Below are positions 37,268 through 61,342 of a stretch of DNA of 64,000 nucleotides, piece after piece; position 1 is the first letter of the stretch; every line of letters begins with the position of its first letter. Under the pieces are notes generated by a model. The model was not told where the DNA came from, made no database searches, and saw only the letters and a list, made by a program, of their open reading frames with translations. The stretch is from NCBI GenBank assembly GCA_000004985.1, contig GG738873.1; one strand, 5' to 3'. A program made the translations under genes and the position numbers. Source of the stretch: Naegleria gruberi (taxonomy: Eukaryota).

Positions 37268-37317
37268 NNNNNNNNNNNNNNNNNNNNNNNNNNNNNNNNN
37301 NNNNNNNNNNNNNNNNN
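37268..37317. other. 50-N scaffold gap inside the DIRS-like element (between gag-like and pol ORFs)
   Basis: n run. Confidence 0.99.
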
Positions 37318-37320
37318 TAA

Positions 37321-38040
37321 CTAATTCTGTGATTTCATGATGTTAGCAACGTTCATTGGGTGACTTAAAGCGAAATGGAGTAGTCTAGATTTCAAATGCA
37401 ACATTTCCATCATCTTTTGCAAGCCCTTTGATTGGATTTCTTGCAAACGGGGATAAGTACGATGATTATGAATAACGGATTCAAATCTAGCCATTAATGA
37501 TTGAACTCTATTCAAAAGAGCATCATTGGTTTGATAACGACGAAGAGTTTTGGCTGAAACAAAACTTAAGACATCTCCATCGGCTAATCTGTCGCCAACT
37601 TCATAGTGTCTTCTAATCTCCTTGATTGTTGACATACCCCAATGTTTACCAGTGGAATCTTCAGCAGAATCCTCATCAGAGTTGTCATCAAGTTGATCAG
37701 CTTCTTGAAGGATGGGTGGAACTGCTTCAAGATGTTTAATTCTCTCACCCAATGAAGTGATGGCGTGAAGAATAGCATCTAGGTTCTTTTCAGAACCACC
37801 TTGGTTGTTATCCAAGGGTTTAGTTTGTGATGAAACTGGGTCATTTCCAGAACCACTTTGATTATTATCTAAAGGTTTAGTCTGTGATGACACTGAACTA
37901 CCTTCATCAATTGCTGGGATATATCCAGACTTGTAAGTTGAAACGCTGTCAGCTGACTTACTAGCAGAAATAATTTTTCTGATAGCAGTCACTGTTTTGC
38001 CAGGGGTGTCAGCAATGATTTTGCTTGGTGTGTTTACCAT
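37321..38040 (-). CDS. gag-like ORF of the DIRS-like element (239 aa, no zinc knuckle, Ser/Thr/Gln-rich internal repeat SSQTKPLDNNQ x2)
   Basis: Position immediately upstream of pol on the same strand. Helical C-terminal half. No independent homology recognised. Confidence 0.45.
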   Translation of the reverse strand: MVNTPSKIIADTPGKTVTAIRKIISASKSADSVSTYKSGYIPAIDEGSSVSSQTKPLDNNQSGSGNDPVSSQTKPLDNNQGGSEKNLDAILHAITSLGERIKHLEAVPPILQEADQLDDNSDEDSAEDSTGKHWGMSTIKEIRRHYEVGDRLADGDVLSFVSAKTLRRYQTNDALLNRVQSLMARFESVIHNHRTYPRLQEIQSKGLQKMMEMLHLKSRLLHFALSHPMNVANIMKSQN

Positions 38041-40187: not shown

Positions 40188-40237
40188 NNNNNNNNNNNNN
40201 NNNNNNNNNNNNNNNNNNNNNNNNNNNNNNNNNNNNN
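40188..40237. other. 50-N scaffold gap at the junction of the two tandem LINE copies
   Basis: n run. Followed by A-rich aaaaagaaaaaa, which may be the tail of copy 1. Confidence 0.95.
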
Positions 40238-40388
40238 AAAAAGAAAAAACTAGGCAGTCCTTTTAAGTCTGCTATTGTTCTTCGAAACGTGAATCTGAGA
40301 GTTTCCACTACTAAGGCAGCCGATTCCCCATGTATGGCTGTAGATAAAAGTGAACTCTCAGAGGAGGACAATTAAACATCACCTTAGA

Positions 40389-42461: not shown

Positions 42462-43648
42462 ATGGTACTAACATTAATAGTTCTAAGAATAATCCGTTAG
42501 AGTATCTGGGTGCCTCCTTTATTAATAACATGTCTTGGTCTCCCTCCGATGATAAGGTTCTCTTAAAAGTTGAATCCAGATTACTAAATTTCAGACCAAA
42601 ACACTTGAGACTCGGTCCAATGAGGAACGTAATATTATCTAAGGTGCTTTCTGTACCTAGATACCTCTCAAGCGTAGATGCTATTCCACTTTCACTATTG
42701 GAAAAATTGGAAGTCAAAATTAGTGGAATTATTAAGAAAAGAATTGGATGTGACAACAGGCTCTCTAAAGCCGTTATATATGGTGATAAATCCCAGGGTG
42801 GACTTGGGCTTTTATCTCCAGTTGATATAAGTCACGTGGAAAGGATGGCATCTGTCTGTAGGTTTGTCAATTCTACCTCTCCTATCACCCAAAAAATCGC
42901 AAGAGCCATGATAAATAAGGCGCTCAAGGGTGAAACTACAGATTCACTGTGGAAAAATGCTGCCGCTACAATGAAAGATCTGAAATATTACTTCAAATCC
43001 ACAGATAATGGATGGGTCTTGTGTAACCATACCAATCACAAGCCTGTCTCCAACCTTAGAAATGCTATCATTGAAACTCAGCGATCCAAAAAAATTATCA
43101 ATAAGTTGGGCCAATTAGACAATGACTATAATTGGCATAACAGCACTCTCTCCTTCTGGAGAAACTCTCTCTTGTCTTATTATCAGCAAAGACTCCTCTA
43201 CTTTAATCTCCACCACTCAATTTTACTAGGTGATGACAGTACTTGTGACAAATGTAATGTCAAGGAAGATTGGACCCATGCATTCCAAACTTGTCCCAAA
43301 TGCAATCCTGAAAAGGATGAACTGTATGCCACATGGGACGCTATCTCCCAGAAATTTAGTATTAACAAGATTCGTTTCCCTCCTGATATCTCAGAATCCT
43401 CTCAACTTAGGATAGAATTTGATGGTCGTTGCTCCCGTAATTACTGGCTTAACTGGTCTAAGCGCAAAAAAATACCTAAGTATCTGGCCCTAGAAGTCTA
43501 CAAAGCACTAGCTATTTATTTGGAAAATTGCTACAAGAACTCAGTGTGGTACAACCGTCCCAATGCAAGCTTCACTATTAACAGGAAATACCTCTCTGCC
43601 TACCACAGGCAGGCTCAGTCTAACCAACCACTTAGCGTCAACCCATAA
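42437..43648 (+). pseudogene. LINE copy 2 downstream reading frame (RT thumb plus CCHC C-terminus), disconnected from the EN-RT frame by the 115-bp deletion
   Basis: Copy 1 positions 39654-39768 are absent from copy 2; 115 is not a multiple of 3. The downstream frame matches the copy 1 frame. Confidence 0.8.
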
Positions 43649-43716: not shown

Positions 43717-44214
43717 ATGAGAGCATTTTATCTCTAAACACAAATAAAAATTAATTGCACAGATTTAAAAATTTGTGATTTGTGTTTGTGTAGACAGACC
43801 ATTTTATCTTGAAAACACAAAAGTATTTTATTAAAATAATAAATTATTGTGGTCTTGAATCTTAGGTTGTTTTCTATGAATCTAGTAGTAAAAGTTCATT
43901 CGTCGTTGATCTTGAAATATGTGATCCGATATCAATATTGTTGTTGCAAGAATTGGACATGAATCGGGTTCTAATGGTTGCTGATTTCTTCTCCCGTTTG
44001 ATGAAGGAGAAGTTTAATACATTTTTTATTAATTAAATATTAAAAAATGTAAGAATGGAATAATTTTAAATAAAAATATGTATTTGTGCAAGATAAAATG
44101 GCCTGTCTACACAAACACAAACACAAATTTGTGAAAATATTTTAGCACAATTTAGCACAAATATTCATGTGTAATTAATTTTTTATTTGTGAATAGTGAT
44201 AAAATGCTCTCAAT
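43717..44214. repeat. Foldback/MITE-like element. Imperfect terminal inverted repeats of about 95-125 nt (43717-43812 versus 44089-44214, termini TGAGAGCATTTTATC...) flank an AT-rich spacer of about 275 bp
   Basis: The reverse complement of gagcattttatctctaaacacaaataaaaattaattgcacag...gtgtttgtgtagacagaccattttatcttg aligns to caagataaaatggcctgtctacacaaacacaaacacaaatttg...taattaattttttatttgtgaatagtgataaaatgctc. Confidence 0.7.
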
Positions 44215-44261
44215 AAATATAACAATTTATTTTTTATTTAATAAATATTACAATTTATTTT

Positions 44262-47200
44262 TTATTTTACCATGATTGTCAATGTATCTGCAATTAAACT
44301 TGTTGACAAGTAGGTATTGTATCCAATAGTTTCTTTTGTATATCTAATGGCATATCCATATGGGAAATAAGTCCAATTATTGCCATTGCACCCATCAGAG
44401 GAGTGAATTACACTGAGCCAATCTCTTTCACTACCACAACCACCAAAACCATATTGAATTATGAAATGCCTTGGAGTTATTGAAGGACCAGTCAATTGCA
44501 TGGTAAAAGCAGTATAGCTATTAACATAAGAGCTTAATCCGTAAGAGGAAGATTGTATTTTCTGAGGTGTAAACCAATTTTTGAAATCAGTACCTGCTAC
44601 GTTGAATAGAATATAGTGTTGCATTGCTGAGTCCTTGTTAATTTCGATCTTTACAGTACCAAACGAACTCCAATAATTCAAGAGGTCACCTATTAATACT
44701 GTATCTGGAGTATACTTGTCCAATGTTCCCCTAATATTGATCTTTGAATTCCAAACATCTGCAGGTCCATATGGTTGACCAGTTGCAATCTTATTAACAA
44801 GTGTGTAACCACCTCCATCAGTGGTCATGTCACAATACACGTTGAACGGAGCTACTGATGGATCTGGTTGGATAGTATAAACACCATCACCAACATTACC
44901 ACCATAGACTCTGCTAGAGTTTGTTGGGTATCTATAATCTTGGCACGTTCTGGCATAGGTAAAATCAGCAAATTTCCTTCCTTCACCACATCCAACTATA
45001 CCAACAATTGAACAGGAAGGTCCATAACGAGAAGGCCCACAAAAACATTGTCCATCAACGCAAACTCCTGCATAGTTGCAAGTAACACCAAGATTAGGAG
45101 CAGAGAAGCAATAAAGCTTTCCAGTTGGTACGTTATTGTCTGATGATAGACAGTAACTATACACCGAGCCATCTGTACTCCAGATAGAAACATTACTAGT
45201 GGATATATACTCATTGCTCCAGTAACTGTTGCTATACATTCGGGATGGTATTGAATTAGAATAGTTCGTATTCCAATACAACGACAAAGGAATGGTATAG
45301 ATGTCATGTCTTGAGAAACTGGAGGTTTCTTGCTCACAGAATACAGCTAGTGGAGGAAATCCTAATGATCCTTGAATAAGATAAAGACCTCTACCTGTCA
45401 TACCTTGATATGTTTTTGAAGAATTTGTTGGATTACTATATTCTGCACAGTTCTTGGCAAATGTTCCATCTGCATATCTTCTTAATCCATTAATAGAAAC
45501 AACACCCACCAATTCACAGAATTTACCAAAATGGCCATATTCACATTGGCATGTATCATAATCCACACAAACTCCTTTGGAGGAGCAAACAGATTTGCTG
45601 GATGCTTGAAAATTGTTACAATATACGCAGAAAAATGGGTTTTGCTTGCACCATTCTGAGGTTCTGTTTTCCCCATCATATACAGCCATCCATGACCCAA
45701 CTGGATCTTCCTTTTCTGCAACGGCAAAATATGGACCAGCGTTGCCATCGGTTGTGTTGGATCCACCGTAAATATATATATAACCACCTTGGGAGGATAT
45801 TATTCCTGAACTTGTCATATAGTATGGAAGTAAACCAAATGTCATTTCCCACTTCAATGGATTTTCTGTAGTAGCTCTAAAAATGTTGAATGAAGATGAC
45901 TCAAATGTTGTGGAACCACCAAATAGATAAATGTAATCACCAACAACTTCAATAAATGCAGAATACAATGGCACAGGAATGACAGAACCATTTACAATCT
46001 CGAATTGTGTAATATTTGACAATGGAGCCCTCATGATAGTGTCTAATATAACTGGAGTGAAGCTTGGGACATTGGAAGGGTCCTCAATATCTGTCAGTGG
46101 TCTATAACTGAATATTCTAGAAATGCCACCAAATATATAAACATAATCACCAGATTGCATTATCATACCCGATGCAACAGGGACTGGGAGAGAAAATGGA
46201 GTCTTTTCCCATTGTTTCAAATCATATAGAGGACATTTGTAAATTGCATTTGACACGTTATTGTTAACAATTCCCCCAAACAAGTACATTTCCTCATTGT
46301 GTTTGAAAAAGTGAGAGTTATGAATTGAATCTGGGAATCCCTCATTTGATGTGATATTATACTCTATCATCGACCAAACATTTTCATTTTTAGAGATGTT
46401 TCTAGTGTACATGCTGAATCCATTATTTACAAGTGATGGCACTGTGTCATCAGCTTTTAACAAATAACCAATCTCACCCAAATCAAAGTAAGTCATCTTC
46501 CTCATATACCATGGCAAGGTCATGGTGACATGATTATTCATTCTAACAAACTTTCCACTTGGACTAAGAGAATAAATTTTAGAGATTGGCGTTCCGGTCC
46601 AATGGTATGGTTTTGTGTCATAGCAAGAACTTCCAGCAAATATTTCAATATTAGAACAATAACCCACAGCCATAACTGTCCCATCTGCTAGGAATAAATA
46701 ACTATTATCTTCATTACTAGTTATGTCAACCACTGGTTGGAATGAATAATAGACTTTGGTAGGAACAAGAACATTGGAATTAGTTAAGCCAGTACCTGTC
46801 TGACCAGCGTCACTCTTACCCCAAGAATATAGAGTTCTATCTTTGCAATAAACAAAATTATGGAAAGCTTTCGTGTGTATCATTGTGGCAAAACAAGTAG
46901 TGTTTGGTCCAAATTGAGATAAAATCTTTGGAAGTAATCTGTTAGTGGTTGAGTTATCTCCAACTTGGTAATAATTATTAAGACCCCATGAATAGACTCT
47001 TCCACTTGTAGTTAGAATCAAGTTGTGTCCATATCCGCATTGAATATCAGTAATTGTTTCATTGATATGTTTTGTTATAACTTCAATAGGTTCTCCTTGA
47101 GATACATTGTTATTAGTACCAAGTTGTCCCCATCCATTGTAACCCATTGAATACAGTCTATTGGTATTCGACAATACAAGTGCATGCTTAAAACCAGCAC

Positions 47201-48286
47201 AAACCCTAACCATAGTTTGATTCATTAAGGCTGCATACCTGTAAACAGAAAAAGGCCTGTTTTTTTCATCCCAAGTTCTATCCCCCAGTTGACCTTGATC
47301 GTTAGCACCCCAGCTCCATAGTTTTCCTGATGAATCAATTGCGTAGGCTGAAAAATATCCTAGTGCGATTTGCTCAATTTTTGCACCTCTAAATCCATTT
47401 ACAAATGTTGGGACAAACTTTGTTTTGGTTCCTCCGGTAGCCAATTGTGAACGTTCATTTAACCCAAAAGCAAAAACTCCCTTGTTTGTGAGAATAAGGT
47501 TGGAAAATTGATTTGCCTCGATTTGAAGAATATCCAATCCATCTAAAAGTTCAACAGGAGCATTATATATTAATCTAGTATCATTGGTTAGATGAATTCT
47601 TCCAAGATTACCATTTTCAAAAACTCCAGTTGAGTACAATTTACCGTTGGGCATTAAAATTAATACATGTTTTAACCCAGCACTAATTCTATTTCTAATT
47701 CTTTTAATCGGCAGTCTTGTGTCAAATCTTTCGTAAACCCCTCTTTTACAATTGACAGTAAAATGATCTTGGTTTGTTTCATTTAAATTTGTTTCTCTAA
47801 AATACAATTCTTCACCATAGTCTTCTACGGTGTAATTCTTAACAATTTCAGTTTTTTTCGAAGTCAATTCATACTTACATTCATGACATCAGAAGATTTT
47901 CTTCCCAAATCCTCGATACTGTTTAATCCCAATGAAAGAATATATGAATTTTCCAGTTCCCAACTCAATACCTTTGCAACATTTTGATTGTTTTTGGAAA
48001 CCATAGATTCGAAAATAGTCTTATTGATATTAAGTTGTTCCAGGATTGGAGCTGCTAAATTCAATGCGTCCTCCTTGTCAATAGCTATTGGCTTGGCTCT
48101 ACTGCTGACAAATTTGTCGCGCTCCTCCTGAAGATTGGTCATAACGTTGATAAAACTCTTTTGTTTATCCTTCCAACTTTTAACCAAGGACATTTCATAT
48201 TGTTGTTCCTGATTGTTGATGTCGATATATCCACTTATCTCAACCGTATCATATATTAAAAGTACTAGTGGTAAAGTTGTCATCAT
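44262..48286 (-). CDS. Paralogue A of the RCC1-Kelch family, two exons: join(48286..47879, 47837..44262) with a 41-nt GTAAGT...TTAAG intron. Domain order: hydrophobic N-terminus MMTTLPLVLLIY, about 120-aa helical region, roughly 6 RCC1 repeats, LPWY motif linker, roughly 5 Kelch repeats, EGF-like Cys module, truncated FReD-like segment, second EGF-like module, fibrinogen-related domain
   Basis: RCC1 signatures (GYNGWGQLGTNNN, WGANDQGQLGD, HALVLSNT). Kelch signatures (EMYLFGG, YVYIFGG, YIYLFGG, YIYIYGG). FReD signature CQDYRYPTNSSRVYGGNVGDGVYTIQPDPSVAPFNVYCDMTTDGGGYTLV. The exon-1 ORF 47864..48286 ends in ATG AAT | GTAAGT, and the acceptor restores NYTVEDYG of the 1201-aa ORF in frame. Confidence 0.8.
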
Positions 48287-48497
48287 CCTATTAATGTTCT
48301 GATCACCTACATGTAATGGTTATAAACAATATTTTCATCATTTTAGAATAGCAACTACTTGTGGGAGATGATAGAGAGTCACTTTTCACAGTCTTCTCTC
48401 CACTCATTTTCTCTTTTTTTTTAAGATTACTGTGCCTTTACGGTAATGTATGGCGATTTTACAGTTTTTTAACAGTATATTTAGCGCAAAGAGTTTA

Positions 48498-50113
48498 TTA
48501 CAGATCTAGCTTTCTTCTTACAGAACGCTCATCTTCAACCTCGTTGACTTCTCCTGTTTCATCATCATCAAACAATCCACCACTGCCTGGAGGTAGAATT
48601 TCAGAACCAGATGGTGTAGAAATTCCAGATTCATTAAAACTTCTCTTTTGAGTAATACTTGACATGGATGATAAATTTGAAGCTGGTGAAATTAATAATT
48701 TACCATGTTGTTGTGGAGTACATGTTGCTTCTCCCATCATTTCATCATTCGAAACCATGCTAATATTATTTACACTACCAAGAGAATCTCTCCCTCTGAA
48801 AATACTATTTGGTCCCACTAAACTCATCATTGAGTAAGATGAAAGACCACTTGTATTTCCTGGACTGTCTTCAAAGTTTAAAACCTTACTGACAGAATTT
48901 GTAATTCTGTGATGAATTTCTTCTCCATACATTTTTGTGTGAGATTCATAATCTCTTCTCTCTTGTTCGTCATGGTTGATTGCAAGACGTTGATAAGAAT
49001 CCATGGCATGTTTTCTCTTTGGAACAGGAAGGTTAAGTTTAGGAGTTGGTTGAACACCACGAGTAAAGTAAGGATGATTAAGAGCTTGTTCAGCTGTGAT
49101 TCTCTTCTTTGGATCAAAAACAAGCATCTTACTAATTAAATCAATAGCATCACGACTGGCAGCAGTAAAGAGAGCATGGAATTCAGTCTTTTGGAATGGC
49201 TCAAATTCAATATAATTAGGTAATAATTTCATTCCAGGCCATTCTTCCTCAGAAGGTGTTCCCAAACAAGCAAATATCTTTCCCAATTGATCAATATCAG
49301 AATCTCCAGGGAAAAGAGGAGCACGTAACATGAGCTCAGCAAATATGCACCCAATACTCCACATGTCCACACTTGGACCATATAACTCAGCTCCAAATAA
49401 TAATTCTGGAGCTCTGTACCATCTGGTAACACATTGTGGAGAGTATCTCTTATCTGGTGAGCCATATATTTTAGCAAGACCCTTTTTTTAGATAATTTGA
49501 ATGTCTAATGTGCATTGTATTCCTCAATACTTACAAAGTCAGCAAGCTTTAGCTCTACTTCATTGGTTTCTTCGTTTTTCCACAAGAATAGATTGGAAGG
49601 TTTCAAGTCACGGTGGAGTACCCAATTTTTGTGACAATAGTCTACTGCTTCCAAAATCATTTTCATATATTGTTTAATGTCAGTTTCATGTAAAACTATA
49701 GTCTTTTCCTTTATAACTTGTTCCAGATCGCCAAAGCCACAATATTCAAAAACTAAATTAATATTCTTCTTATTCACAAATACATCCAATAAATTTAAAA
49801 TATTTTGATGTTTAATTTCTTGGAGTGATTTAACTTCACGGATAGCAGAAAATGAAACACCTTCTTCAATACCTCGGGCAGAATCAGATGAAAGTGATCC
49901 GAGCTTTATCTTTTTGATGGCTACTGTTTGATTTGTTTCAAGATCTTTTAAAATCGTTATTAAATTATAAATATACAATAATAATTTGTAGTTGTTGTTA
50001 TAGTTACACATACCTTTACACTTGTAAACAATACCGAAAGTACCCTCTCCGATAAAACAAATTCTTTCATACCTTCGTGCTCTTTGATTAGCGGCAAGTA
50101 AATAGTCAAGCAT
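48498..50113 (-). CDS. CDK7: CDK7-like cyclin-dependent kinase (CDK-activating kinase), three exons: join(50113..50014, 49944..49535, 49481..48498). Introns are 69 nt (GTATGT) and 53 nt (GTAAGT). Carries a C-terminal extension of about 170 aa, Ser/Thr-rich and acidic
   Basis: RYERICFIGEGTFGIVYKCK / DLETNQTVAIKKIKLG / HRDLKPSNL / LKLADF|GLAKIYGSPDKRYSPQCVTRWYRAPELLFGAELYGPSVDMWSIGCIFAEL / PGDSDIDQLGKIFACLGTP match human CDK7 block for block. Splice junctions restore the GxGxxG-to-VAIK and DFG-to-APE regions. Confidence 0.88.
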
Positions 50114-50172
50114 TTTTTTTGGCTTGTTTTTGAATATTTTATATTGAAACGATATGATTTGGCGCCAACTAG

Positions 50173-50185
50173 TTTATTATTTATT
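50173..50185 (-). promoter_or_regulatory. AATAAATAATAAA poly(A)-signal-like hexamers overlapping the stop codon of the ankyrin gene, only about 60 nt upstream of the CDK7 ATG
   Basis: Minus-strand reading ...TTG AAT AAA TAA taataaactagt... then 63 nt to the ATG at 50113. Confidence 0.35.
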
Positions 50186-52354
50186 CAATAAATTTTCCAA
50201 AAGATTAATAATCTCTGAAAAGTGAGTATTGTTCATGCACCCTGGATCATTCATTTGTTTCTTTAACAAATCCAAAACATTTACCTTATTTTCATCTTTA
50301 AGCATTATCCAAAGTGGAGAGTCGGGCGAATCATCGATATGAGAATTGAATTCCTCAATTAAAAATAAAGCACTTTCAAAATCCTTATCATTAACACATG
50401 AAAAGAGTAAAGACCTCATATTTTGATTCTGTATAAAGGACAATTTGACAAGCAATTTGGAATAATGTTGAGGAACCTGATACTTTTCAAATCTTTGTTT
50501 CATGAATTTAATTACCTGAGGGAGAAGTGCTGTATTATTCTCAACTCTACCAACCAAGTAAGTGAAAGGTAAATTATTGAATGAATCCATTTTGAGAGCA
50601 TTAGCTCCATGTCTTATTAGGAACAAAATTGATGCCAGTGGCAATTCTATACAAGTCTTGTGGAAAAATGGTATATTACCAGAGGTTTGTTTGTTGTGAT
50701 CGAAAGGGCATTCGTTGATATCTAATCCATATTCTAGTAGATTACGGCAAATTGATAGCTTTCCCTGTTTTAGAGATTCGAAAAAAACATCTATTACTGT
50801 TGGAATTTCCTCATTTGTTGTCGAAAAATCCAACGAAATTTGTTGAGTAAGGCACTTGTGGAATTTTTTCTTCATATCTTGGAAACGAGGTTTTCCCAAA
50901 AGATAACATTTGGAAAAAGTCTCTCCAAATGTCCATTTCCACAAAAACTCACAAATTTGTTTACAAGTCTCACCCTTCTTTTTGTCATCGAGAGTTATTG
51001 GGCTGTTTGCATCTTCGAGCAAAATGTAAAAGAGTGGTGTAAACCTTCTAGAATCTCGTTGTAACAAGAGTTCTGGGCACTCCTTGTACAAAAACTTGAG
51101 GGTATCAATTTGACCAAACTTTGCAGCAATATGCATGAGAGTACAATTATAATAATTTGAAAATGAAATACATCTTAGGAAGCATCTAAATTCTTGTCGT
51201 TGTCTGATAACATTGTTAAATCTCTCGTGAAGAAGGCTTTTCAATTGAATGAGGGTTGATTGGTCATTATTTACAGTAGAGAGGCAAGAAATTAAAAGTG
51301 ATTTCCATTCTTCAGAATTCATATGTACAGTGCTTGGGATATTTACAATGGTAGAGGATTGTTGATTGGAAGTTTGTGAGGAAAAAAGAGGAGCAGTGGC
51401 TATATTTGAGTGTCTTCTCAAGTAGTACGCTCTGGAATTGAGGGTATCTGTTGTTTCCTTATTGTGTTGCTCAGACCCAAATGTGAAAGAGCTACAAGCT
51501 AAAGAGGCGAAACTTTGGGCCTCATCAGTTGCTTCAAGGGAACTGACAGTGCTCGAGAAGGAAGACAGAAAGAGTGAATTTGAAAGCGAAGTAGGTGTTT
51601 GTTCATCAGAACTCAGTACTGAACTGTTAGTCATTGTTGTTGATGTTGAGGTGTTGAGTATCAAGGAACTGTCATCCTCCTCTGTGTAATCATTATCAAA
51701 ACTATCAGAGGTTGAGGTTTCAATAATGGTATTAACTGTGGAGGAAGCAGGTGCATTTTCCAGCTCTTCGAATGCCTTCTCTATGGAACGAATATTGTTG
51801 GTAATGCGTGTTGGGGTGGTAGGGAAGTTGGTTGTCTGTTTTTCAAATTCATTCTCATCATCTGTTGTTATTTCACTCGTAAAGTAATTTGGTTTAATGG
51901 CTTTTGGTTTGATAGGTTCATCCTGTTGTTGTTGTTGCAATTCCTTCTTCTTTGGTCTGTGAGAGAAAATATCCTGATCAAACATAATATCTGACTCACT
52001 AACACAAGAGGAAAATAAAGGCGAGCTTTTAGTTTTACCGAAGAGAGTTCTACTTCGCAAAAAGCCACCACTCTTCTTTTCCAATGATTGATCTGGTGAT
52101 GATACGATTATTGGAATGTTGGATTTTTCTTGTTGTTGGGAAGAAACAGCTGGATCACTATCACTACAAATACTGGTATTACATGATGATTTGCCTATAG
52201 GAAATGTTGATGGAGCAATACTTGCTCTCCTCGTTGATGAAGGAGGTGATGTTGTTGAAGTGTTATTGTTATTACACAAATAGGTGCCACTCCCAAAGTT
52301 ACTCCTCCTAGGAAGAAGAATTCTGTTTGGAGTTGTTGGTGTTGTTGAACTCAT
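50177..52354 (-). CDS. Ankyrin-repeat-containing protein with a long Ser/Thr/Asn-rich low-complexity N-terminus (725 aa). Function unknown
   Basis: ATG at 52354. ANK-like units (TLMHIAAKFGQIDTLKFLYKECPELLLQRDSRRFTPLFYIL; LFLIRHGANALKMDSFNNLPFTYL). No stop over 2.2 kb in AT-rich DNA. Confidence 0.5.
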   Translation of the reverse strand: MSSTTPTTPNRILLPRRSNFGSGTYLCNNNNTSTTSPPSSTRRASIAPSTFPIGKSSCNTSICSDSDPAVSSQQQEKSNIPIIVSSPDQSLEKKSGGFLRSRTLFGKTKSSPLFSSCVSESDIMFDQDIFSHRPKKKELQQQQQDEPIKPKAIKPNYFTSEITTDDENEFEKQTTNFPTTPTRITNNIRSIEKAFEELENAPASSTVNTIIETSTSDSFDNDYTEEDDSSLILNTSTSTTMTNSSVLSSDEQTPTSLSNSLFLSSFSSTVSSLEATDEAQSFASLACSSFTFGSEQHNKETTDTLNSRAYYLRRHSNIATAPLFSSQTSNQQSSTIVNIPSTVHMNSEEWKSLLISCLSTVNNDQSTLIQLKSLLHERFNNVIRQRQEFRCFLRCISFSNYYNCTLMHIAAKFGQIDTLKFLYKECPELLLQRDSRRFTPLFYILLEDANSPITLDDKKKGETCKQICEFLWKWTFGETFSKCYLLGKPRFQDMKKKFHKCLTQQISLDFSTTNEEIPTVIDVFFESLKQGKLSICRNLLEYGLDINECPFDHNKQTSGNIPFFHKTCIELPLASILFLIRHGANALKMDSFNNLPFTYLVGRVENNTALLPQVIKFMKQRFEKYQVPQHYSKLLVKLSFIQNQNMRSLLFSCVNDKDFESALFLIEEFNSHIDDSPDSPLWIMLKDENKVNVLDLLKKQMNDPGCMNNTHFSEIINLLENLLNK

Positions 52355-52857
52355 AAATCCAATTATTAATATTCGTCTCGAAGAGCAAAAAGAAAGATTT
52401 TAGCCTTCAGAGTATTTGAACGCTTTTCTTCAAAGTACGATGGCGACCACAGAGTAAAGTTGTTGAGAAGGGAAGATAAGTGGCGCTGGTGAAGAAGCGG
52501 TGAAAGCCTTTTTTTGCTCTTTTGTGCCTCAAGCCTTATGCAAGGCCTATTGGTGTGAGTTGAATGATTCTTTACAGAGGCGATGATGGATGTGGCTTGC
52601 AGCTCGTTTATACAAAAGCCTGGTAATGATGAGTGTGTGAATTAACCAATAATTTTACATGTATTTCTATCATACAACATTACGTTAACTCTATATTAAA
52701 TTAAATATTAAGAAGGAAACGTGAGAAGTTAATCACATTAGAACGTAACATTGATTCTGCTTACCAATCTATTAATAAATATTAAAAAAATTTGCAATAA
52801 TAACAATTTAAAACTGTAAAAGAGTTTGTCCAAGTCATAACATTCCAACTCCTTTTT

Positions 52858-54397
52858 ATGAATAATAGGTGGTTGCCAACAAACGACGATTCCTCATTCA
52901 TCCCTCTCGATCTACTCTCGTCCTCAATTACAGAGTGTCCACCTCTTCATTCTGAATCAAAAACAGAATCACTAACGACATTAAAAAAGCCAAGCAACAC
53001 CCAAAATTCATACATTCCTAAACGAATTAATTCTAAAGAAACTCGTCATCACCTCGATCATTATTATTATCACCAATTACAACAAGAAATTAGAGAAGAT
53101 CCCGATCAAACAATGAATATATTTTATTATAAACAACAATCGGAAAATCAATCCAATGATCCGAAATTAGCTACCAGAGGATGTAGCGAATTTGATGAAG
53201 TAGTACAACAATCTTCATCCATTGAAGGTGGTTCCAAGAAGGAAATTATAGAAGACAAGGAAAAATCAATTCTATTCTGTGGATTTAATCAGTTAAATAA
53301 TTTATTTGCAGTTGGTACTGAACAAGGTTTCTATGTCTATTCAACAGGTAGTCTACGTGAAAGGACCAAAATGTGTAAGTACTATTATTGGTCAAGAACC
53401 CATTTCTAATTTTAAAAAGTATTTAATGGAGGTATTGGAATTGTTGAAATGTTATTCAAGTCAAAGTAAGTAATTGACATTCAATGGTGGAATATTTAAT
53501 TTAAACAGTATTTTTGCTCTTGTGGGTGGAGGTTCAAAACCAGCCTTTGCACCTGATCGAGTTATTTTATGGGAAGACTCTCAAAAGAAGATTATTTCTG
53601 AAATTTCCACTGGAAACAAACCAATTAAGGCTGTTAAGTTACATAAAAACTTGCTAATTGTTGTACTGGAAGATCAAGTAATTGTCTATGATCATGATAT
53701 TAAGGAAAGAAGCAGAGATTCTACAACTGATAATCCTTATGGTATTTGTGCAATTTCTCCTGATACTGAAAATATTGTATTGGCCTACCCTTCAGTTCAA
53801 GTTGGATATATCACAGTTGATCATTTGACCATTCCAAATAGAAAACTTCATATCAAAGCCCATGAATCAAAAATATCTCAAATAGCACTCAACAAGGATG
53901 GTACTCGTGTAGCAACAGCCAGTGAGAAGGGAACACTAATTAGAGTATTTGATACAACTACCAAACTTTTGGTTAAGGAAGTAAGAAGAGGATCTAAACA
54001 AGCTCACATTTATTCTATTGCTTTTTCAGATGATTCTAATTTCATTTGTTGCTCTTCAGATACAGGTACTATTCACGTTTTTTCTCTTGTGGACAATACT
54101 CAAAATAGAACTTCAAGCTTCTCATTTGTAGGGGGTTATATTGCAAGCATTTTCAATTCAGAATGGAGTTTTGGTGAATATCGAGGAGGAGAAGATGGCC
54201 TTGTTGATATACCAACATTATGTTCATTTGCACCAAGAAAAGAAGAAGAAAAAACAATAGCTATCAATGTTTTAACTGGTAAAGGTGAGGTTGTAATTTT
54301 AACATTTGACGTTTCAGGAGGTCAAACAACCCCAACTAATGTTGAAAAGAAATCATTTGTTTCAAATGAATCTCCAAATAATTCTCCATCTCTTTAA
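52858..54397 (+). CDS. WIPI/Atg18-family PROPPIN (WD40 beta-propeller, phosphoinositide-binding RRG motif), three exons: join(52858..53374, 53420..53465, 53509..54397). It includes a 46-nt micro-exon, 45- and 43-nt introns, and an N-terminal extension of about 140 aa
   Basis: ILFCGFNQLNNLFAVGTEQGFYVYS (propeller blade 1). The micro-exon encodes LFNGGIGIVEMLFKS, matching the conserved IVEMLF motif of Atg18. TLIRVFDTTTKLLVKEVRRGSKQAHIYSIAFSDDSNFICCSSDTGTIHVFSL matches the WIPI (L/F)RRG block. Both donors are GTAAGT. Confidence 0.8.
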
Positions 54398-54595
54398 AGG
54401 ATGTATTATGAATAAAAGTGTAAATATTAGCATTTTGGATGATTTTATATTTAATTTTATTTTTGAATTTAAAAAAAAAACTAAAACTTTACTGTTTTGT
54501 TGATGGAGTCCTCTAGCAAAGATTATTAGGAGATTTGCTTTCTTCAAAAAACCGACTCGACTTTTTAACTATACTAGTATCACAACTCTTAAACA

Positions 54596-56658
54596 TGAAG
54601 AGGCAACACGAAGAATCATCAAGTGGCATTAAATTGGGTGATGATGACGTTAATCAATTCCTCCAATCCATAAACCGCTATAACAATCCCTTCATTACCG
54701 AATCATTACTTTCATCAAATAATTATTCTGATATTACATCACCAGAACATGCTCATGTTGACTCCGAGGATGAGGAGGATCAAACTTGTCAACCTTCCTC
54801 ATTGGCACCAGCAAGAAAGTTTAGAAAGATAAATTCCTCCAATTTATTGCTTGCCCAACATAATTTAGAAACAACAGCCGGTGATTTGGCTTGTGCTCCT
54901 TCTGTTTTTGATGATGATGAAGAAGAGGAAGACAATGAAGAGATTTATGATGACGAAAATCCAAGACTTATTGATAAAACAAGGACCGTTGGATCACTTT
55001 TGGATGAATTTCAAATACAAAATTGGTTTGATACAACAACTGATCTTGCCCACACTAAAATAACTGATTATTTCATATCCAATAAGAAGGTTATTTCTAT
55101 GCTGCATAGTATGAGATTACATTATGGATTGGAAATTGAATTTGGATCAACCCTTCTCTATAAGGTTTGGGAGTCCTCTCAGAGAAGATTGTTCAGCCAA
55201 TTAATGTTATCATTTTCTCCTGATTTGTACAATGAAAATATTGTTGAGATGAAAAGATATGCAGAGCCTCAACCAGGTGTGGAATATTTAAAGAGAGTTG
55301 TAAAGGAATATTTTGTGAAAGAAAACAGCCAAAATACCGAAATTCAAAATTTGAAAATTACAAAAGATTTAAGTATTGATGAAGAACTAATAAGAGTTGC
55401 CAAGTTTGTTCTCAATAGCAAGCAAAAGAGAATCAAACTTCTTTCGTGTACCATGGATGAATGGAATGAAGAATTGGATGTAATGAGTAATGGAGGATTT
55501 TCAGCAGCTGGAGCTTCCGTTGGAAGTCTAAAGAGCATTAATTTAACATCAGAAAATATTAGAAACTATAATAATACATCTGGGGAAGTTGTTACATCTC
55601 TTCAGTTTGTTGATAGCAACTCGGGCAAAAGCTTTATTTCTATTTCAGATGAGGATCCTCTAGATCCAGAGACTAGGAATATTACTGACCCAAGAGTGAG
55701 TGAAGCTAGATATAAAAGAGAAATGTACAGAATCAATCGTTGGAAGACAGAAGGAGCCTATCTAAGAAGATTATATATTGGTGAAATTGATGAAAACAAG
55801 TCATTTTCTTCAAATATGTTCTATGATGGGCAGTCTAGAATCAAATGTTCACCTTTACTGAAAAAATTATATTACAAATTCTTTACACACGTTCCAAGAA
55901 TGTTGGATATTGAAGAAGTTTTACGTTTACTTGTTTCAAAACCAAACGAGTCACACGAAATATTTACAAATCTAGAAACTCATGTGTTTAGAGAATTGGA
56001 TCGATTCAAGGTTAGCCTATGCTTGAAAATAGAAATAGCTTTCGAGGACATTTGTGGATTACATATTCAAAAGGCACCTAGTGGTCCTTATGGCTGGGCT
56101 TTATTAGTGCTAAAACTTGCAAAGAGACCCAAGTTCTTTACAAGACGTGTAATGAGCTCGGATAGAAAGAAAAATCTAGTTAAGCAACGAAATTCTGATT
56201 TCACTCCAAATAATATTGCATCCAAATACAGCACACATTATATAATCGGTGATGAAAGAGAACTGAAACGTATAGTTGCTCTAATGATTGAGGCTGATTC
56301 TGATGTTGGACATATTTGTAAACTATACAAACAAGGCATGGATGATATCTCATTCCCTACTAGCCCAGACTGGAGTTTTGAGGAAAGGAAATCTCAAACC
56401 CAATCCAAACAGAAGGAAATATCATATCCATCCAAGATTTCTTTCCAATCTGCTTTTTTATGCAAAGAAGACGAAGAAAATCAACGAGTGAATGAGGAAT
56501 TATACGATTCTGATGATGGTGTTTTCCCATTTGATGTTTCTATTGACAAACTGGATACAATTAGTAGGCAAAAGTATGAAAGACGACAATTGCAACTAGA
56601 AGATTTAGTAGATATGGAGAATAAGAATTTTGGATTGGATGAATGTTTTGTGCAATAA
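54596..56658 (+). CDS. Hypothetical acidic protein (about 687 aa from the first ATG, MKRQHEESSS...). DE-rich segment DDDEEEEDNEEIYDDE. No domain recognised
   Basis: Long open frame. The listed start at 54535 is TTG; the first ATG is at 54596. Internal introns cannot be excluded. Confidence 0.45.
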
Positions 56659-56662
56659 ATAT

Positions 56663-58344
56663 TTATCTCTTTTTTCCATAAGTGAAAAAGTTTTCCATAA
56701 TACTGCCAGAGGTGGCTGGATCAGAAAATGGACAACCAGAAGAACAAGGTTTGAATTCTTCTGACTTTTTGTTTTTGTAATATCTCAACCAAAAAGCTCT
56801 ATCAAAACTCTTCAAGAGTAGCCAATCATCTTGCCTTCCCTTATCAAAAAAGAGAGGATCCTTCTTTAAAATTGTATTGACAAATTCATCTAGTTCAGTA
56901 TGAGTGGTGAATTTGAAAACTTCTTGAGTAAAACCAAACTTTTCTTTCACTTCCTTTGGTAATGTATAATTCAACTCGCAACTTCCATTTGTTCTTAATT
57001 TCTCACAATAGTCATGAAGGGCTCCTTTAAACTTGAGCTCCAAACCCAATACTCTACAAAGTTCGTCAACAAAATGTTGACAGTTAGCCTTCTTTTGAGA
57101 ATACATCATGTTCATATTCCACTCACAAATTACATTACTAATCTTTTCGAGGGCTTCTCCAACCTGTGGTCCATGGAAGCATCTATCCACGTCAGCAGCT
57201 AGTACAGCAGCACCAGAGTAGCATTTTCTTGGTACAATTAATGATGAGTCATTCCACTATTTGTTGTTTCGATATGTTTCAATGAAATGATATTAAATTC
57301 ACTTACCTCTAAATACCATGGTCCTACTACTAGAGCAGAGTGAAAGAGTCCAAATTGAGGAACAACATTGAATGTATCTAAAACTGGAGAAAGGAATTTT
57401 CTGAAATTTCTTTGAGCAGCAGTTCTATGTAGTTCAACAATTACTAATTTGACCTTTAAAAATTCTTCATCCTTAATTATATAATTCTTATTAGTTTGCA
57501 GATCAGAAATTTCATTTTCCATTTTTTGTAAATCTCTCCTTTCTTCTTCATCAACCGCAGAATTGTTACCATCTTCAGCAATATTGGAAGCAATATTTGG
57601 AGCTCTACTTGAAGGGATAATTGATCCGAGATGTGATGTTGTAGAAGGTGGTGATCTACCAATTGGTTTTGAAGAAGGGGATGAGGTTGTATCATCATTG
57701 ATCAATTCTGTAATCGTCTTTTTTGTTGCAACAAAATCCTTATTCAAATAACTGTTTAAGAGATGCTTCTTGACGACTAAATTCTTTGCCTTGTCCTTTT
57801 TCTGTTTATCTGACAAGTTTTGCAAACCTTTCAATTTATCCAATTTACTCAAACACTTTTTAATGGCAACATCTTCATCAATCTGAGGAGTATGTGGGGT
57901 AGAAGGACTATTAATTGTTGTCAGTGATGATGGAGAAGTTGTATTATTTACATTGCTTTTTGTGGTGAGTGTTCGATCTAATTCTCTCATCAATTTGATT
58001 GCCACTCCAGTCGGAATATTCATTTCATCAACAAGTGTATCCTTTGTTAGGGACTCTAACATGGATCCATCAAGACCAACAAAATGTTTCTTATATTCAT
58101 CAAAACCATGAGTAGAAAGCCACTCCATCACCATATCATTGGTCCAATTAGAAATTTCCAAAATATGATTATTTGTTTGTTGTTGTATATAAAACCCTGA
58201 TGATGCTGTTGCTCTATTAATTTGTTGTTGTTGATTTTGTTGTTGGGTGAGAGGTTGTTTCTCAGAGGCGGCTTGTTGATCTTCCTCCGTAGTGACACCT
58301 CTTCCTTCACTCCAACTTGTCCACCAACTTTGGCCAAGACCCAT
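56663..58344 (-). CDS. SAM-domain protein with a C-terminal PPPDE/DeSI-like cysteine peptidase domain, two exons: join(58344..57307, 57256..56663) with a 50-nt GTAAGT...AATAG intron. The N-terminus MGLGQS fits an N-myristoylation consensus. Has poly-Q/N stretches
   Basis: SAM block: ISNWTNDMVMEWLSTHGFDEYKKHFVGLDGSMLESLTKDTLVDEMNIPTGVAIKLMREL. PPPDE block: FGLFHSALVVGPWYLE|WNDSS...YSQKKANCQHFVDELCRVLGL (His ... NCxHF...LC). The splice joins ORF 57238..58344 to ORF 56663..57190 in frame. Confidence 0.6.
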
Positions 58345-58401
58345 TTTTTATGTTGGAAGATATTTTGATTTTCTTGCTGCTCTAGAAATTTATTAATAAT
58401 T

Positions 58402-60971
58402 TTAATTACAAATGGTTGGATATTTTGAACAAATTGTTGAAAGGGCTGTAGTTGTACCACCAACCCAACCATCAGGGAAGCTTGTTCTGGTGGTTCTATA
58501 AATGTTAGGACCAACCAAACTGTTGCCTGTGGAAGCACCTGAGAACACGACATCATTAGCACTACTTGAAAAGACAGAAGAACCTGAATTGACATGGAAT
58601 GTGAGTTGGGATTTAAGGGTCCAGGAAACAAAATCAGATGTTGAATAAATCTTGTTTGATTGTGATGAAGAAAGGGATGTCAGACCTCCAATTATATAAT
58701 AATTACTGTCTGTGTCAACCTTGTAGACAAAAGCAGAATGTAGGACTGAAGGGAACTTGGAATTAAACATGATTTCCCAGTTTCTCATATCTGAATCTAC
58801 GCTTGTTCTTAATACAGTTTGAGAAATAACGAGATTTTGAATTGCATCAACATCTCTAGAAGAGTTGAAAAGATGTGTTTGCTTAATACCCCCAATGATA
58901 TACACATATTGTGTATCAGAAATCAGCATTCCTGATGCCAATGGGAACGGAAGCTTCTGGTCTAACAATTCCCATCCAAACAATGGGTCAGAAATAGGAG
59001 CTCTGTAAATTGAATTTGATATTTCATTATTAACAAACCCACCGAGCATATATATATATTCCTTGATTCTAATGATGTGTGTACTGTAGATTGATTTCCC
59101 ATAGAGCGTGTTATTGAGAACTGAGGTTGGAGATACTTGCTGCCATGAACTGTAATAGCTACCAGGATTGGTACTGTTGTAGTATCCAAATTCTAGACCA
59201 TTTCTTGATAAGAAACTCTTATCAGATTTAAGTAAATAACCTTTTCCGTTCAAATTGAAATATGGACTTTGTCTCAAATACCATGGTAAATAGGTAAAAG
59301 TGTACATGGAATCTTTTGTAAAGCTGTTAGAAACAGAACCAATTGACCTGAATACAGTTGTGGAGAAAGTACTGCCCGAGTAGTAGATGGATCCATCCAT
59401 CGTTTGAAGAGCAAAGCTTCCCGTTGAGCTACTAGCAATATCCAAAATGGAATCAACAAACTCTGTGCTAAAAGACGAGTAAAGAGTAGGTGAGGTCACA
59501 GTGGAAGCAGTTGAACCGAGTCCCAATTCACCATTTGAGTTTCTTCCATATCCGTACATTTTACCATTTGTGCAAATGAGTATTGTACTATAAAACTTTG
59601 AGTAAACTTTTTTAACACTACAAGGTGCGCTTAGGAGTTGAGGAGTGAACCTTGTGGTTGTGGATCCATCACCCAATTGACCATAGTTGTTGTATCCCCA
59701 TGTAACAACTTTTCCATCTGTAGTCAAAACAACAACGTGGTTAGATCCGCATTGAACATCAAGGATGTTAACTGCAGAGAGAGCACCAGTGAGTGGAATT
59801 GCTACAGGTTTACTTTTAAAAGAAGGATCTGTTACACCAATGCCTAATTGACCTAGAGAATTATCTCCAAATGAAGCTAACGTATTGTCACTTGTAAGGA
59901 CCACAACAAAACTATCTCCAGCGCAGACTTTGACAACTTGCTTGTTTTTTAAAGGTCCATTATTCTTTAGCACCTTAAAAGGTCTAAATTTATCTTCTTG
60001 GGTGCTGTCACCAAGTTGTCCTAAAGAGTTATCACCCCAGGCCCACAACTCGCCATCAGTTGTGATGGCGTACGAGCTTCTGCCTCCTGATGCAATTTGC
60101 TCAACTTTCTTCCCCAATAATCCTTTTACTTTAACTGGATTCAAACTATCAGCTTTGTTTCCAGTTCCTAATTGACCATTAGAATTGGAGCCAAAAGAGA
60201 ACAATCCCTCATTAGTAAGTACAAGATTTGTACGAGAGTATGTTTCTACTTGGTAGATAGTTTCAGAAGCAATAGGAATAGAGTCATTATACCTTAGTGC
60301 AGAACCGGAATAGGTTCTTCCAAGTAGCCCTACCTTTAAAGAGTCAATTCCAGTGGAATAGAGTTTTCCATTTCCTAAAATTACTATAAAATGTTGCTCA
60401 CCTCCGGAAAGGAAATTTCTAATTTGTTTTACAGTTCCTTGTGAGGTCTCTAAATTGAACAATGAATTGCCACTGTTTAGAAATCTTCCAGTTGGAACTT
60501 CTTCATTGCTGCCAATACTTTTGGTATAGGTAAAATCTTGTGATGTCAAAATGTCTTTTGAAATCATTCTCTAAGTGCAAACTAATTAATTTAGAATTTT
60601 TGTAAATTACTTACAGTGTGAAATTTTGTTATTGAGCTATTCGAAAAAGCAATGACCTTATTAATCATTTGCGTGACAATGCCAAGCTCTTCAAGCTTAG
60701 ACTTAATATCTTCCAAGGATTTTGATTTCAAAGCACTAAGGTTGTTTATGTAGTCTGCTGTAACTCCATACTGGGAAGCAAATGCAGATATACCATATGT
60801 ATCGTACAGAAAAGAAATTGAACTAGTAAATTCCAAATGAAGGTTTTTTGAGGTTTCTAAAGGAGGAATAAGTGTGGTGTTGATGTAATCAATTACATTG
60901 GAATGGGATACTCTTTGATTGAGACTCATCCTTAAGCCTTCCTCATAGTCCTCATATGTAAGGCCATCCAC
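58402..60971 (-). CDS. Paralogue B of the RCC1-Kelch family: join(60971..60615, 60570..58402) with a 44-nt GTAAGT...CACTTAG intron. Exon 1 is open upstream to about 61031 with no ATG, so a further 5' exon is likely. Ends after the Kelch propeller with no EGF or FReD tail
   Basis: RCC1 repeats (FGSNSNGQLGTGN, WGDNSLGQLGDST, WGYNNYGQLGDGSTT). LPWYLRQSPYF linker. Kelch repeats (YIYMLGG, YVYIIGG, YYIIGG). Exon-1 ORF 60591..60971 ends ..KFHT | GTAAGT. Same architecture as A and C. Confidence 0.75.
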
Positions 60972-61342
60972 AAGTAACGACTCGTATGATTGGGAGGCAA
61001 AGACAGAATCTGTGAGAGTTACCTCCGATTAATTGTTTTACTAATACCTACATGAAGAATAATTCAATAATAATAAAATTACAAGTAATCCAATCCACCA
61101 AACTGTTGTTGTTGTTGGCAATCTACTCATGTTGTGAGGAGGCCATTGCTTCTTTAAACACATTTTTGTTTTGTATGAGTTTGGTCAGATTTACAGCATA
61201 TTTGCATGCCGTAGACCCCGTAATGGCAGTAAGAAGCTGTAAATCTAACAACACCTCAAAAAAAAAATTAGATACCATCAGCTTACCATCACAGAGTGTG
61301 TGATCACATTGGAATAGTGAGGAATTGTATTATAGTGTAAGA

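Follow-up and report, generated by a model that had tools for sequence, protein, structure and literature searches.

Naegleria among compact gene arrangements

The best-described arrangement close to the one considered here is the dual-use stop, where a poly(A) signal lies on the stop codon and 3' UTRs are ultrashort, as in Giardia, Spironucleus and Naegleria gruberi (PMC11529991). Nanopore direct RNA sequencing of N. gruberi NEG-M gave AAUAAA as the top poly(A) hexamer and the hexamer itself as the main cleavage determinant, with cleavage 15-20 nt after it, a median 3' UTR of 39 nt (22 nt at dual-use sites) and 11-13% of stop codons overlapping AAUAAA (PMC11529991). Spliced-leader operons (C. 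elegans SL2; Oikopleura, Ciona) resemble the present locus in having same-strand neighbours that lie tens of bases apart, an upstream AAUAAA and an AG shortly ahead of the downstream ATG. The PTUs of the Euglenozoa (trypanosomatids, diplonemids and euglenids) share with it a kinship within the Discoba and short intergenic regions, but a directon there comprises tens to hundreds of genes, compared with 1-4 here. A further comparison is offered by microsporidia and nucleomorphs, which have compact genomes with overlapping transcription units, and the likeness lies in spacers too short for a separate promoter and terminator and in 3' ends that enter the neighbouring gene, as at a convergent pair 4 bp apart in the locus described below. 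The Naegleria genome, however, is ~40 Mb, belongs to a free-living organism and contains introns and retrotransposons, and hence does not belong with the reduced genomes of parasites; in addition, overlapping transcripts are found in microsporidia and nucleomorphs, whereas the arrangement here is known from sequence alone.

Genes, spacers and stop codons in the window

The window, by which we mean the whole stretch of 64,000 nt analysed from N. gruberi contig GG738873.1 (GCA_000004985.1), consists of N at positions 1-34822, with actual sequence only at 34823-64000, and it also contains DIRS-like and LINE-like retrotransposons. Gene models were assembled from ORFs and GT-AG introns (Table 1). 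The CDK7 product has a Pfam Pkinase match at E=2.8e-75, its best named matches are CDK7 or RNA-polymerase-subunit kinases, and it is 80% identical to that of N. lovaniensis. The ankyrin repeats of ANK are weak, with Pfam Ank_2/Ank_4 matches close to threshold, and an exact-protein look-up for ANK returned no match. The SAM protein, which matches SAM_1 at E=1.5e-7 and has one homologue that carries PF05903, is 69% identical to its counterpart in N. fowleri and 68% to that in N. lovaniensis. Among the paralogues, parA combines an RCC1-like domain and Kelch-like repeats with an EGF-like and fibrinogen-C-like C-terminus, while parB has a signal-peptide-like N-terminus and an RCC1-like domain; relative to the earlier note the parB model gains two more upstream exons, which places its start at 61130.

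Table 1. Genes, spacers and 3'-end signals in the sequenced part of the window.
Feature	Position	Strand	Description
parA	44262..48286	-	2 exons, 1327 aa
CDK7-parA spacer	48287..48497	-	211 bp
CDK7 AATAAA on stop	48494..48499	-	TAATAAA; pair 3, CDK7-parA
CDK7 gene	48498..50113	-	3 exons (50113-50014, 49944-49535, 49481-48498), 497 aa; splice model
ANK-CDK7 spacer	50114..50176	-	63 bp; holds TATAAAAT and an A-rich run ahead of the ATG
ANK AATAAATAATAAA	50173..50185	-	two AATAAA: 50185-50180 abuts stop, 50178-50173 overlaps stop
ANK gene	50177..52354	-	single exon, 725 aa; ORF; upstream member of tight pair 1
ANK/WIPI divergent spacer	52355..52857	.	503 bp, start codon to start codon
PROPPIN/WIPI-type WD40 gene	52858..54397	+	3 exons, 483 aa; 197 bp upstream of P707
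P707 gene	54595..56658	+	687 aa counted from first ATG; convergent with SAM gene
SAM-domain gene	56663..58344	-	2 exons (58344-57307, 57256-56663), 543 aa; PPPDE-like C-terminal half
parB-SAM spacer	58345..58401	-	57 bp
parB 3' signals	58389..58406	-	ATTAAA 58406-58401 overlaps stop; AATAAA 58394-58389, 7 nt past stop
parB	58402..61130	-	3 exons (61130-61052, 61009-60615, 60570-58402), 880 aa; upstream member of tight pair 2
parB/parC divergent spacer	61131..61342	.	212 bp
parC	61343 to past 64000	+	third paralogue; divergent from parB

The distances of 63, 57 and 211 bp given in the earlier note for the three minus-strand pairs are all correct when re-derived from the coordinates, with the ANK stop (TAA, 50179-50177) facing the CDK7 ATG at 50113-50111, the parB stop (58404-58402) facing the SAM-gene ATG at 58344 and the CDK7 stop (48500-48498) facing the parA ATG at 48286. 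Overall, the tandem spacers of the window measure 57, 63, 197 and 211 bp, the divergent ones 212 and 503 bp, and the convergent one, between the SAM and P707 stops, is 4 bp (56659-56662) and lies inside a 12-nt palindrome, ATAAATATTTAT. The real spacers would be longer if the true CDK7 or SAM ATG lay further downstream or if the upstream genes stopped sooner, a reading that draws on the gene models being our own constructions from ORFs and GT-AG introns. The upstream ORFs, however, run unbroken up to the stops in Table 1, an environmental contig with 99.9% identity agrees with the sequence across CDK7-parA, and the first 11 residues of CDK7 (MLDYLLAANQR) are the same in N. lovaniensis. The SAM protein, in turn, begins with MGLGQS, and this myristoylation-type MGxxxS start is present in all five proteins compared (window, N. 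fowleri, N. lovaniensis, Willaertia and Acrasis). A wrong start codon is rejected because these N-termini are conserved, and an artefact of the gene models is therefore hardly credible; judged by this conservation, the predicted start codons of CDK7 and the SAM gene are genuine. Records 100% identical to CDK7 come only from genomic metagenome contigs with introns retained (ERR1078381), and hence they are silent on transcripts.

The stop codons themselves are closely associated with poly(A) hexamers. As the earlier note had it, AATAAA is present at the upstream stop of both of the tightest pairs, both abutting and overlapping it at ANK, where AATAAATAATAAA is predicted to act as a dual-use stop and poly(A) signal, and 7 nt after it at parB. 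The signal on the CDK7 stop, which that note did not mention, extends this to the third pair, and AATAAA also overlaps the stops of parA and of P707 (56654-56659) and occurs at 54411-54416 behind the WIPI gene. In all, 6/7 complete genes in the window have an AATAAA in the interval -6..+16 around the stop, and in four it overlaps the stop, with parB adding an overlapping ATTAAA; counting either hexamer, five of the seven genes have one that overlaps or abuts the stop, and a sixth has AATAAA at most 16 nt away. Random placement (200,000 trials) never exceeded 3/7 genes, which indicates an enrichment of AATAAA beyond chance, and an AATAAA neighbour is found at only 7-8% of all TAA triplets. The hexamer does not, however, mark the tight pairs as such, since the genes that have it include the convergent P707; its presence at the stops of P707 and of parA, the latter with no gene downstream, identifies it as a general 3'-end signal. 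The likeness to the dual-use systems thus lies in a hexamer on or at the stop and in spacers that are compatible with 3' UTRs of ~20 nt, while the overlap in 4/7 genes, a small sample, exceeds the 11-13% seen genome-wide in N. gruberi, where the poly(A) sites have been mapped (PMC11529991) and are not, as here, read from sequence.

Operons and spliced leaders

The same geometry, with 44-66 nt between the poly(A) signal of the upstream stop and the next ATG, would fit true operons, in which ANK-CDK7(-parA) and parB-SAM would each give a polycistronic pre-mRNA, resolved by 3' cleavage and polyadenylation coupled to spliced-leader trans-splicing. Moreover, both short spacers contain an AG in an A-rich context that resembles the 3' ends of local cis-introns (at CDK7 the A-rich ...AAAAACAAG stands ~10 nt ahead of the ATG, although this signal is information-poor), and the Heterolobosea are related to the Euglenozoa, where all members trans-splice. 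We nonetheless regard such operons as very improbable, for reasons of gene orientation, spacer length, gene order and the spliced leader itself.

Gene orientation was assessed in a set of 45 adjacencies from the window and four related loci, the annotated loci of relatives amounting to 87 kb from N. lovaniensis, N. fowleri and Willaertia. Tandem adjacencies account for 20 of the 45 (44%), so that a co-orientation bias is absent, and directons comprise 1-4 genes, typically ~2. This count agrees with a preprint covering 59 Discoba species, in which the Heterolobosea have ~2 genes per directon with no heavy tail and a ratio of inter- to intra-directon spacers of ~1 (bioRxiv 10.64898/2026.07.29.740908). 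In the window the mean tandem spacer is 132 bp, to be compared in this small sample with the ~180 bp expected of independent units from the divergent and convergent means, (357 + 4)/2, and hence the tandem spacers match those predicted for independent units. The median spacers in relatives are 267 bp for tandem, 246 bp for divergent and 116 bp for convergent neighbours, and tandem spacers of 116 bp or less occur in 6/16 cases with a minimum of 81 bp, so the 57 and 63 bp spacers of the window fall below all 16 tandem spacers sampled there. Packing is nevertheless tight regardless of orientation, with 4 bp between convergent genes in the window and divergent ATG-to-ATG spacers as small as 34, 89 and 98 bp in relatives. 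Convergent and divergent neighbours that are equally tight, together with the lack of co-oriented clusters, set this locus apart from spliced-leader operons. AATAAA at the stop is likewise equally common on genes that have no same-strand neighbour, and the base composition upstream of genes with tandem neighbours is the same as that upstream of genes with divergent neighbours.

The pairs are also not conserved, another difference from spliced-leader operons: in the three related genomes compared (N. fowleri, N. lovaniensis and Willaertia) neither ANK-CDK7 nor parB-SAM is syntenic. The divergent partner of CDK7 in N. lovaniensis is the P707 orthologue, 98 bp away, and that of the SAM gene is an E1 enzyme gene, at 220 bp in N. 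fowleri and 187 bp in N. lovaniensis; in Willaertia the SAM gene is located behind an unrelated gene. Hence in these relatives CDK7 (N. lovaniensis) and the SAM gene (N. fowleri and N. lovaniensis) head units of their own. No functional link is obvious between the paired genes, which also speaks against operons.

A spliced leader is unreported in this lineage despite N. gruberi ESTs, RNA-seq and direct RNA sequencing (PMC11529991), and our full-text literature searches found no report of one in Naegleria or the Heterolobosea. Scanning the 29 kb against Rfam revealed no SL RNA family, the sole match being a sub-threshold histone stem-loop inside a retroelement, and exact-pattern scans of JGI metagenome contigs with the ANK 3' end plus poly(A) signal and with the SAM-gene start gave no match. 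Distant homologues of the SAM gene (41-46% identity) occur on metatranscriptome-like contigs (L007-L013) that have poly(A) tails and no common 5' leader; these contigs come from other organisms and are therefore uninformative for Naegleria. The proposal of trans-spliced polycistrons in the earlier note is thus not supported, given the lack of co-orientation bias, tandem spacers that behave as independent units, unconserved pairs and no reported spliced leader. It is just as doubtful in the more general form in which the tightest pairs, ANK-CDK7 and parB-SAM, would be co-transcribed and processing coupled to polyadenylation would free the downstream mRNA at the A-rich AG of the spacer, whether or not a spliced leader still to be discovered takes part, and we give this very little credence. 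If it were true, polycistronic expression in a heterolobosean would mean that euglenozoan-style gene expression originated deeper in the Discoba; the pairs would gain evolutionary importance only if a spliced leader or truly polycistronic mRNAs existed, and this we consider very unlikely.

Transcription units and promoters at the tight pairs

We propose that the arrangement very probably represents ordinary packing in a compact Naegleria genome, with every gene forming its own transcription unit. The 57-211 bases between neighbouring genes reflect a very compact genome whose poly(A) signals are on stop codons, and such packing with poly(A)-on-stop is a known Naegleria feature and not evidence of operons. 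The alternative that the earlier note had held in reserve, namely very short 5' UTRs and promoters that reach into the upstream gene, is the best-supported reading, and it fits the direct RNA data for N. gruberi (PMC11529991). The upstream gene would terminate at an AAUAAA or AUUAAA on, or a few bases past, its stop, that is, at a dual-use stop, and a poly(A) signal in this position implies cleavage ~15-20 nt further on, so that the 3' UTR would measure some 15-30 nt. Transcription of the downstream gene would then begin in the leftover 25-50 bp, or overlap the upstream 3' end slightly, and would thereby give this gene a very short A-rich leader, while its core promoter would overlap the 3' UTR and final codons of the upstream gene. 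From the published lengths (PMC11529991) we infer that the ANK-CDK7 spacer may accommodate an ANK 3' UTR of ~15-25 nt and a CDK7 leader of at most 40-50 nt, and that in the parB-SAM spacer cleavage ~15-20 nt past AATAAA would leave ~25-35 nt before the ATG; the poly(A) sites and TSSs of both spacers are placed on this basis.

How much room a promoter needs bears directly on a further possibility, in which at least part of the downstream gene's expression would come from transcripts whose starts lie within the upstream gene or ahead of it; the mRNAs would be overlapping or bicistronic, of the kind known from some very compact eukaryotic genomes, and the spacer itself would lack both a discrete promoter and a TSS. 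Just ~25-50 bp are left past the predicted poly(A) site, as judged by the geometry and the published cleavage distances (PMC11529991), and the P707 and SAM stops are so close that transcripts there must overlap their neighbours at the 3' ends. The divergent spacers of the window, which allow 100-250 bp per gene, suggest that promoters usually take more than 100 bp, and hence the tight pairs would require putative promoter elements inside the upstream gene. In relatives, however, the divergent spacers of 34, 89 and 98 bp indicate that two promoters and two leaders fit in less than 100 bp in this group, so that a promoter and its leader can function in very little space. In addition, if transcription of the downstream gene started ahead of the AATAAA, its mRNA would have a strong poly(A) signal in the leader, and this hexamer is reported to be the main cleavage determinant in N. 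gruberi (PMC11529991). Bicistronic mRNAs of Naegleria are not described in any publication that we found, and on balance we consider expression by overlap or read-through unlikely, although not negligible, compared with separate transcription units.

As separate units, the tight pairs illustrate the already known compaction of Naegleria and the published dual-use stop and poly(A) arrangement, and they have little import as they stand. They do raise the question of how Pol II initiates when an upstream poly(A) site is only 25-50 bp away, or when two divergent genes have just 34-98 bp between them. The promoters of Naegleria have yet to be characterised (PMC13315211), a gap that currently limits the design of N. 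fowleri transgenes (PMC13315211, PMC12845041), and pairs of the ANK-CDK7 and parB-SAM type are handy test cases to define a minimal promoter.

Two minor features of the 3' flanks may be added. The flanks of CDK7 and ANK have a likeness (TAATAAACT..TTG.CGC.AAAT) that is marginal, being reached by 203 of 5000 shuffles, and on the 3' side of parA a 28-nt unit repeated twice (44212-44267) bears additional copies of AATAAA.

Tight gene pairs and their start codons

We propose that the two tight same-strand pairs in the window, the ankyrin gene (ANK) followed by the kinase gene CDK7 and the RCC1-like paralogue parB followed by the SAM-domain gene (SAM gene), are very probably separate transcription units, each combining a dual-use upstream end (a stop codon overlapping the AAUAAA poly(A) signal), a short-leader downstream start and an overlapping promoter. 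The spacers of the earlier note, 63 bp for ANK-CDK7, 57 bp for parB-SAM and 211 bp for the looser CDK7-parA pair, proved correct when the coordinates were re-checked. The CDK7 N-terminus (MLDYLLAANQR) is the same in the window and in N. lovaniensis, and an MGxxxS start is common to the window SAM protein (58327-58344) and four heterolobosean orthologues (P0121-P0123, P0126); judged by sequence, both downstream ATGs are genuine. MGxxxS is also the N-myristoylation consensus. Pfam detects the SAM domain alone in the window protein, and its PPPDE assignment is based on a PF05903 match in one homologue and an NCQHF motif.

Features of the window
Feature	Coordinates	Strand	Description
N run	1-34822		precedes actual sequence, 34823-64000 (29 kb, 36% G+C, including two 50-N gaps)
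DIRS-like retroelement	35213-38040	-	RT and Dam-like methyltransferase domain; adjoins gene cluster region
Assembly gap	37268-37317		50 N
Stem-loop match	37777-37821	+	Rfam histone 3' UTR stem-loop
Non-LTR (LINE-like) retroelement	38892-43648	+	endonuclease and RT; copy partly duplicated
Assembly gap	40188-40237		50 N
Repeat in parA 3' flank	44212-44267		28-nt unit, two copies (96% match)
parA	44262-48286	-	RCC1-like paralogue
CDK7	48498-50113	-	kinase
ANK	50177-52354	-	ankyrin
PROPPIN/WIPI gene	52858-54397	+	
P707	54595-56658	+	convergent with SAM gene
SAM gene	56663-58344	-	SAM domain
parB	58402-61130	-	RCC1-like paralogue
parC	from 61343 (to beyond 64000)	+	third RCC1-like paralogue

Window introns are 38-69 nt long with GT-AG ends. 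Spliced CDK7 shares 80% protein identity with its N. lovaniensis counterpart, with 100% matches only to environmental metagenome fragments; for the SAM-domain protein, identity is 69% with N. fowleri, 68% with N. lovaniensis and 60% with Willaertia magna. These values place the window in a Naegleria species about as distant from N. fowleri as from N. lovaniensis, presumably of the N. gruberi lineage. A metagenome contig (L002/L003; ENA and Logan, run ERR1078381) matches window 47594-50023 (2430 bp) at 99.9% identity; the contigs from this run retain introns and hence are genomic, and the sample evidently contains the same Naegleria strain or species as the window.

AATAAA at stop codons and predicted mRNA ends

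At the ANK stop, AATAAA is found both abutting and overlapping the codon (AATAAATAATAAA, 50185-50173), and it overlaps the stop of CDK7, while at the parB stop ATTAAA overlaps and AATAAA lies 7 nt downstream. The hexamer is thus present at the upstream stops of the tight pairs, as had been noted, but it is not specific to them, since 6/7 complete window genes carry AATAAA within -6 to +16 of the stop, including P707, which has a convergent neighbour, and parA, which has only an AT-rich stretch and a retroelement downstream. Random placements (n = 200,000) never gave more than 3/7 such genes, and only 7-8% of TAA triplets overall have AATAAA at such a distance. In N. gruberi direct RNA sequencing, AAUAAA ranks first among hexamers, 15-20 nt upstream of where cleavage occurs, and overlaps 11-13% of stop codons; the median 3' UTR is 39 nt, and 22 nt at these dual-use sites (PMC11529991). 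By analogy, AATAAA at the window stops is the presumptive poly(A) signal, and these figures would place the mRNA ends at ~50150-50165 for ANK and ~58365-58380 for parB, leaving ~40-50 nt before the CDK7 ATG and ~25-35 nt before the SAM ATG. In the relatives' loci AATAAA at this distance is rarer, with 3/28 genes for N. lovaniensis and N. fowleri together and 2/12 for Willaertia; on this small sample, poly(A)-signal usage may vary within the group. Several stops in these loci (L001, L004, L005 and L006) read TGTAA.

The 4 bp between the stop codons of P707 and the SAM gene shows that 3' ends are likewise compacted in convergent orientation, and each 3' UTR must therefore run antisense into the coding region of the other gene. 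A 12-nt palindrome, ATAAATATTTAT, lies at the centre of these stops (56654-56667), giving AATAAA on the plus strand and GATAAA on the minus strand. The repeat beside parA has AATAAA on both strands, with up to four minus-strand copies within 40 nt of the stop. CDK7 (48470-48500) and ANK (50147-50179) have similar 3' flanks, TAATAAACT(C/AG)TT(T/G)GCGC(T/C)AAAT; past the common TAATAAA the likeness is marginal (reached in 203/5000 shuffles) and may reflect a downstream cleavage element or chance.

Orientation, synteny and the operon reading

Spacers were tabulated by orientation in the window and in 87 kb of annotated loci surrounding CDK7 and SAM orthologues from N. lovaniensis (L001, L005), N. 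fowleri (L004) and Willaertia (L006). Tandem spacers are 57, 63, 197 and 211 bp in the window and 81-670 bp in the related loci (6/16 are ≤116 bp), divergent spacers 212 and 503 bp against 34-732 bp (smallest 34, 89 and 98 bp), and convergent spacers 4 bp against 44-199 bp plus two long ones. If genes are independent units, a tandem spacer should approximate half a divergent plus half a convergent spacer, or ~180 bp in the window, where 132 bp is observed. Divergent pairs, which are never operons, are as little as 34-98 bp apart, so in this group <100 bp can accommodate the leaders and promoters of two genes. Base composition 5' of ATGs does not differ between genes with tandem and divergent neighbours.

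The earlier note had likened the packing to nematode or appendicularian operons, and that the tight pairs are operons resolved by a spliced leader is very unlikely. The likeness is one of local geometry alone, whereas co-orientation and pair conservation are missing. Only 20 of the 45 adjacencies in the window and the four related loci are tandem (44%), without co-orientation bias, and directons (runs of same-strand genes) hold 1-4 genes. A preprint on 59 Discoba genomes likewise gives ~2 genes per directon in Heterolobosea, a distribution lacking a heavy tail, and a ratio of ~1 between inter- and intra-directon spacers, an organisation from which Euglenozoa differ (bioRxiv 10.64898/2026.07.29.740908). 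Neither ANK-CDK7 nor parB-SAM was found as a unit in the relatives' loci compared, and no functional link between the paired genes is evident. In N. lovaniensis the neighbours of CDK7 are the P707 orthologue (divergent, 98 bp) and an unrelated convergent gene; the SAM gene and a ubiquitin-activating E1 gene form a divergent pair in N. fowleri (220 bp) and N. lovaniensis (187 bp), and in Willaertia the SAM gene lies 277 bp downstream of an unrelated gene. CDK7 and the SAM gene, the downstream members of the tight pairs, therefore function in relatives as heads of their own units. No spliced leader RNA family matches the window, and full-text literature searches found no report of a spliced leader in Naegleria or Heterolobosea. 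The CDK7 spacer has AAAAACAAG ~10 nt 5' of the ATG, similar to the A-rich ends of local cis-introns (...AAAAG or ...AAACAG), and might conceivably hold a splice acceptor. Read-through or overlapping transcripts without trans-splicing are improbable, if less so than operons.

The other reading of the earlier note, short 5' UTRs with the promoter inside the upstream gene, is the most likely. The upstream mRNA would terminate at its dual-use stop/poly(A) signal, and the downstream gene would start transcription within the few tens of bases left over; its leader would be very short and A-rich, and its core promoter elements would overlap the upstream gene's 3' end. The arrangement belongs to the dual-use stop and ultrashort UTR pattern already published for N. 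gruberi and other compact protists. As Naegleria promoters are uncharacterised (PMC13315211), the point of interest is how transcription can begin in so little space.

Paralogues and retroelements beside the gene cluster

Each of parA, parB and parC has a signal-peptide-like N-terminus and an RCC1-like domain; Kelch-like repeats and EGF-like and fibrinogen-C-like modules were also detected in parA, and parB and parC form a divergent pair 212 bp apart. Retrotransposon sequence fills the left third of the real sequence (34.8-43.7 kb), where the assembly gaps break both retroelements. The histone stem-loop match within the DIRS-like element (24.7 bits, gathering score 34) is sub-threshold and most likely due to chance.
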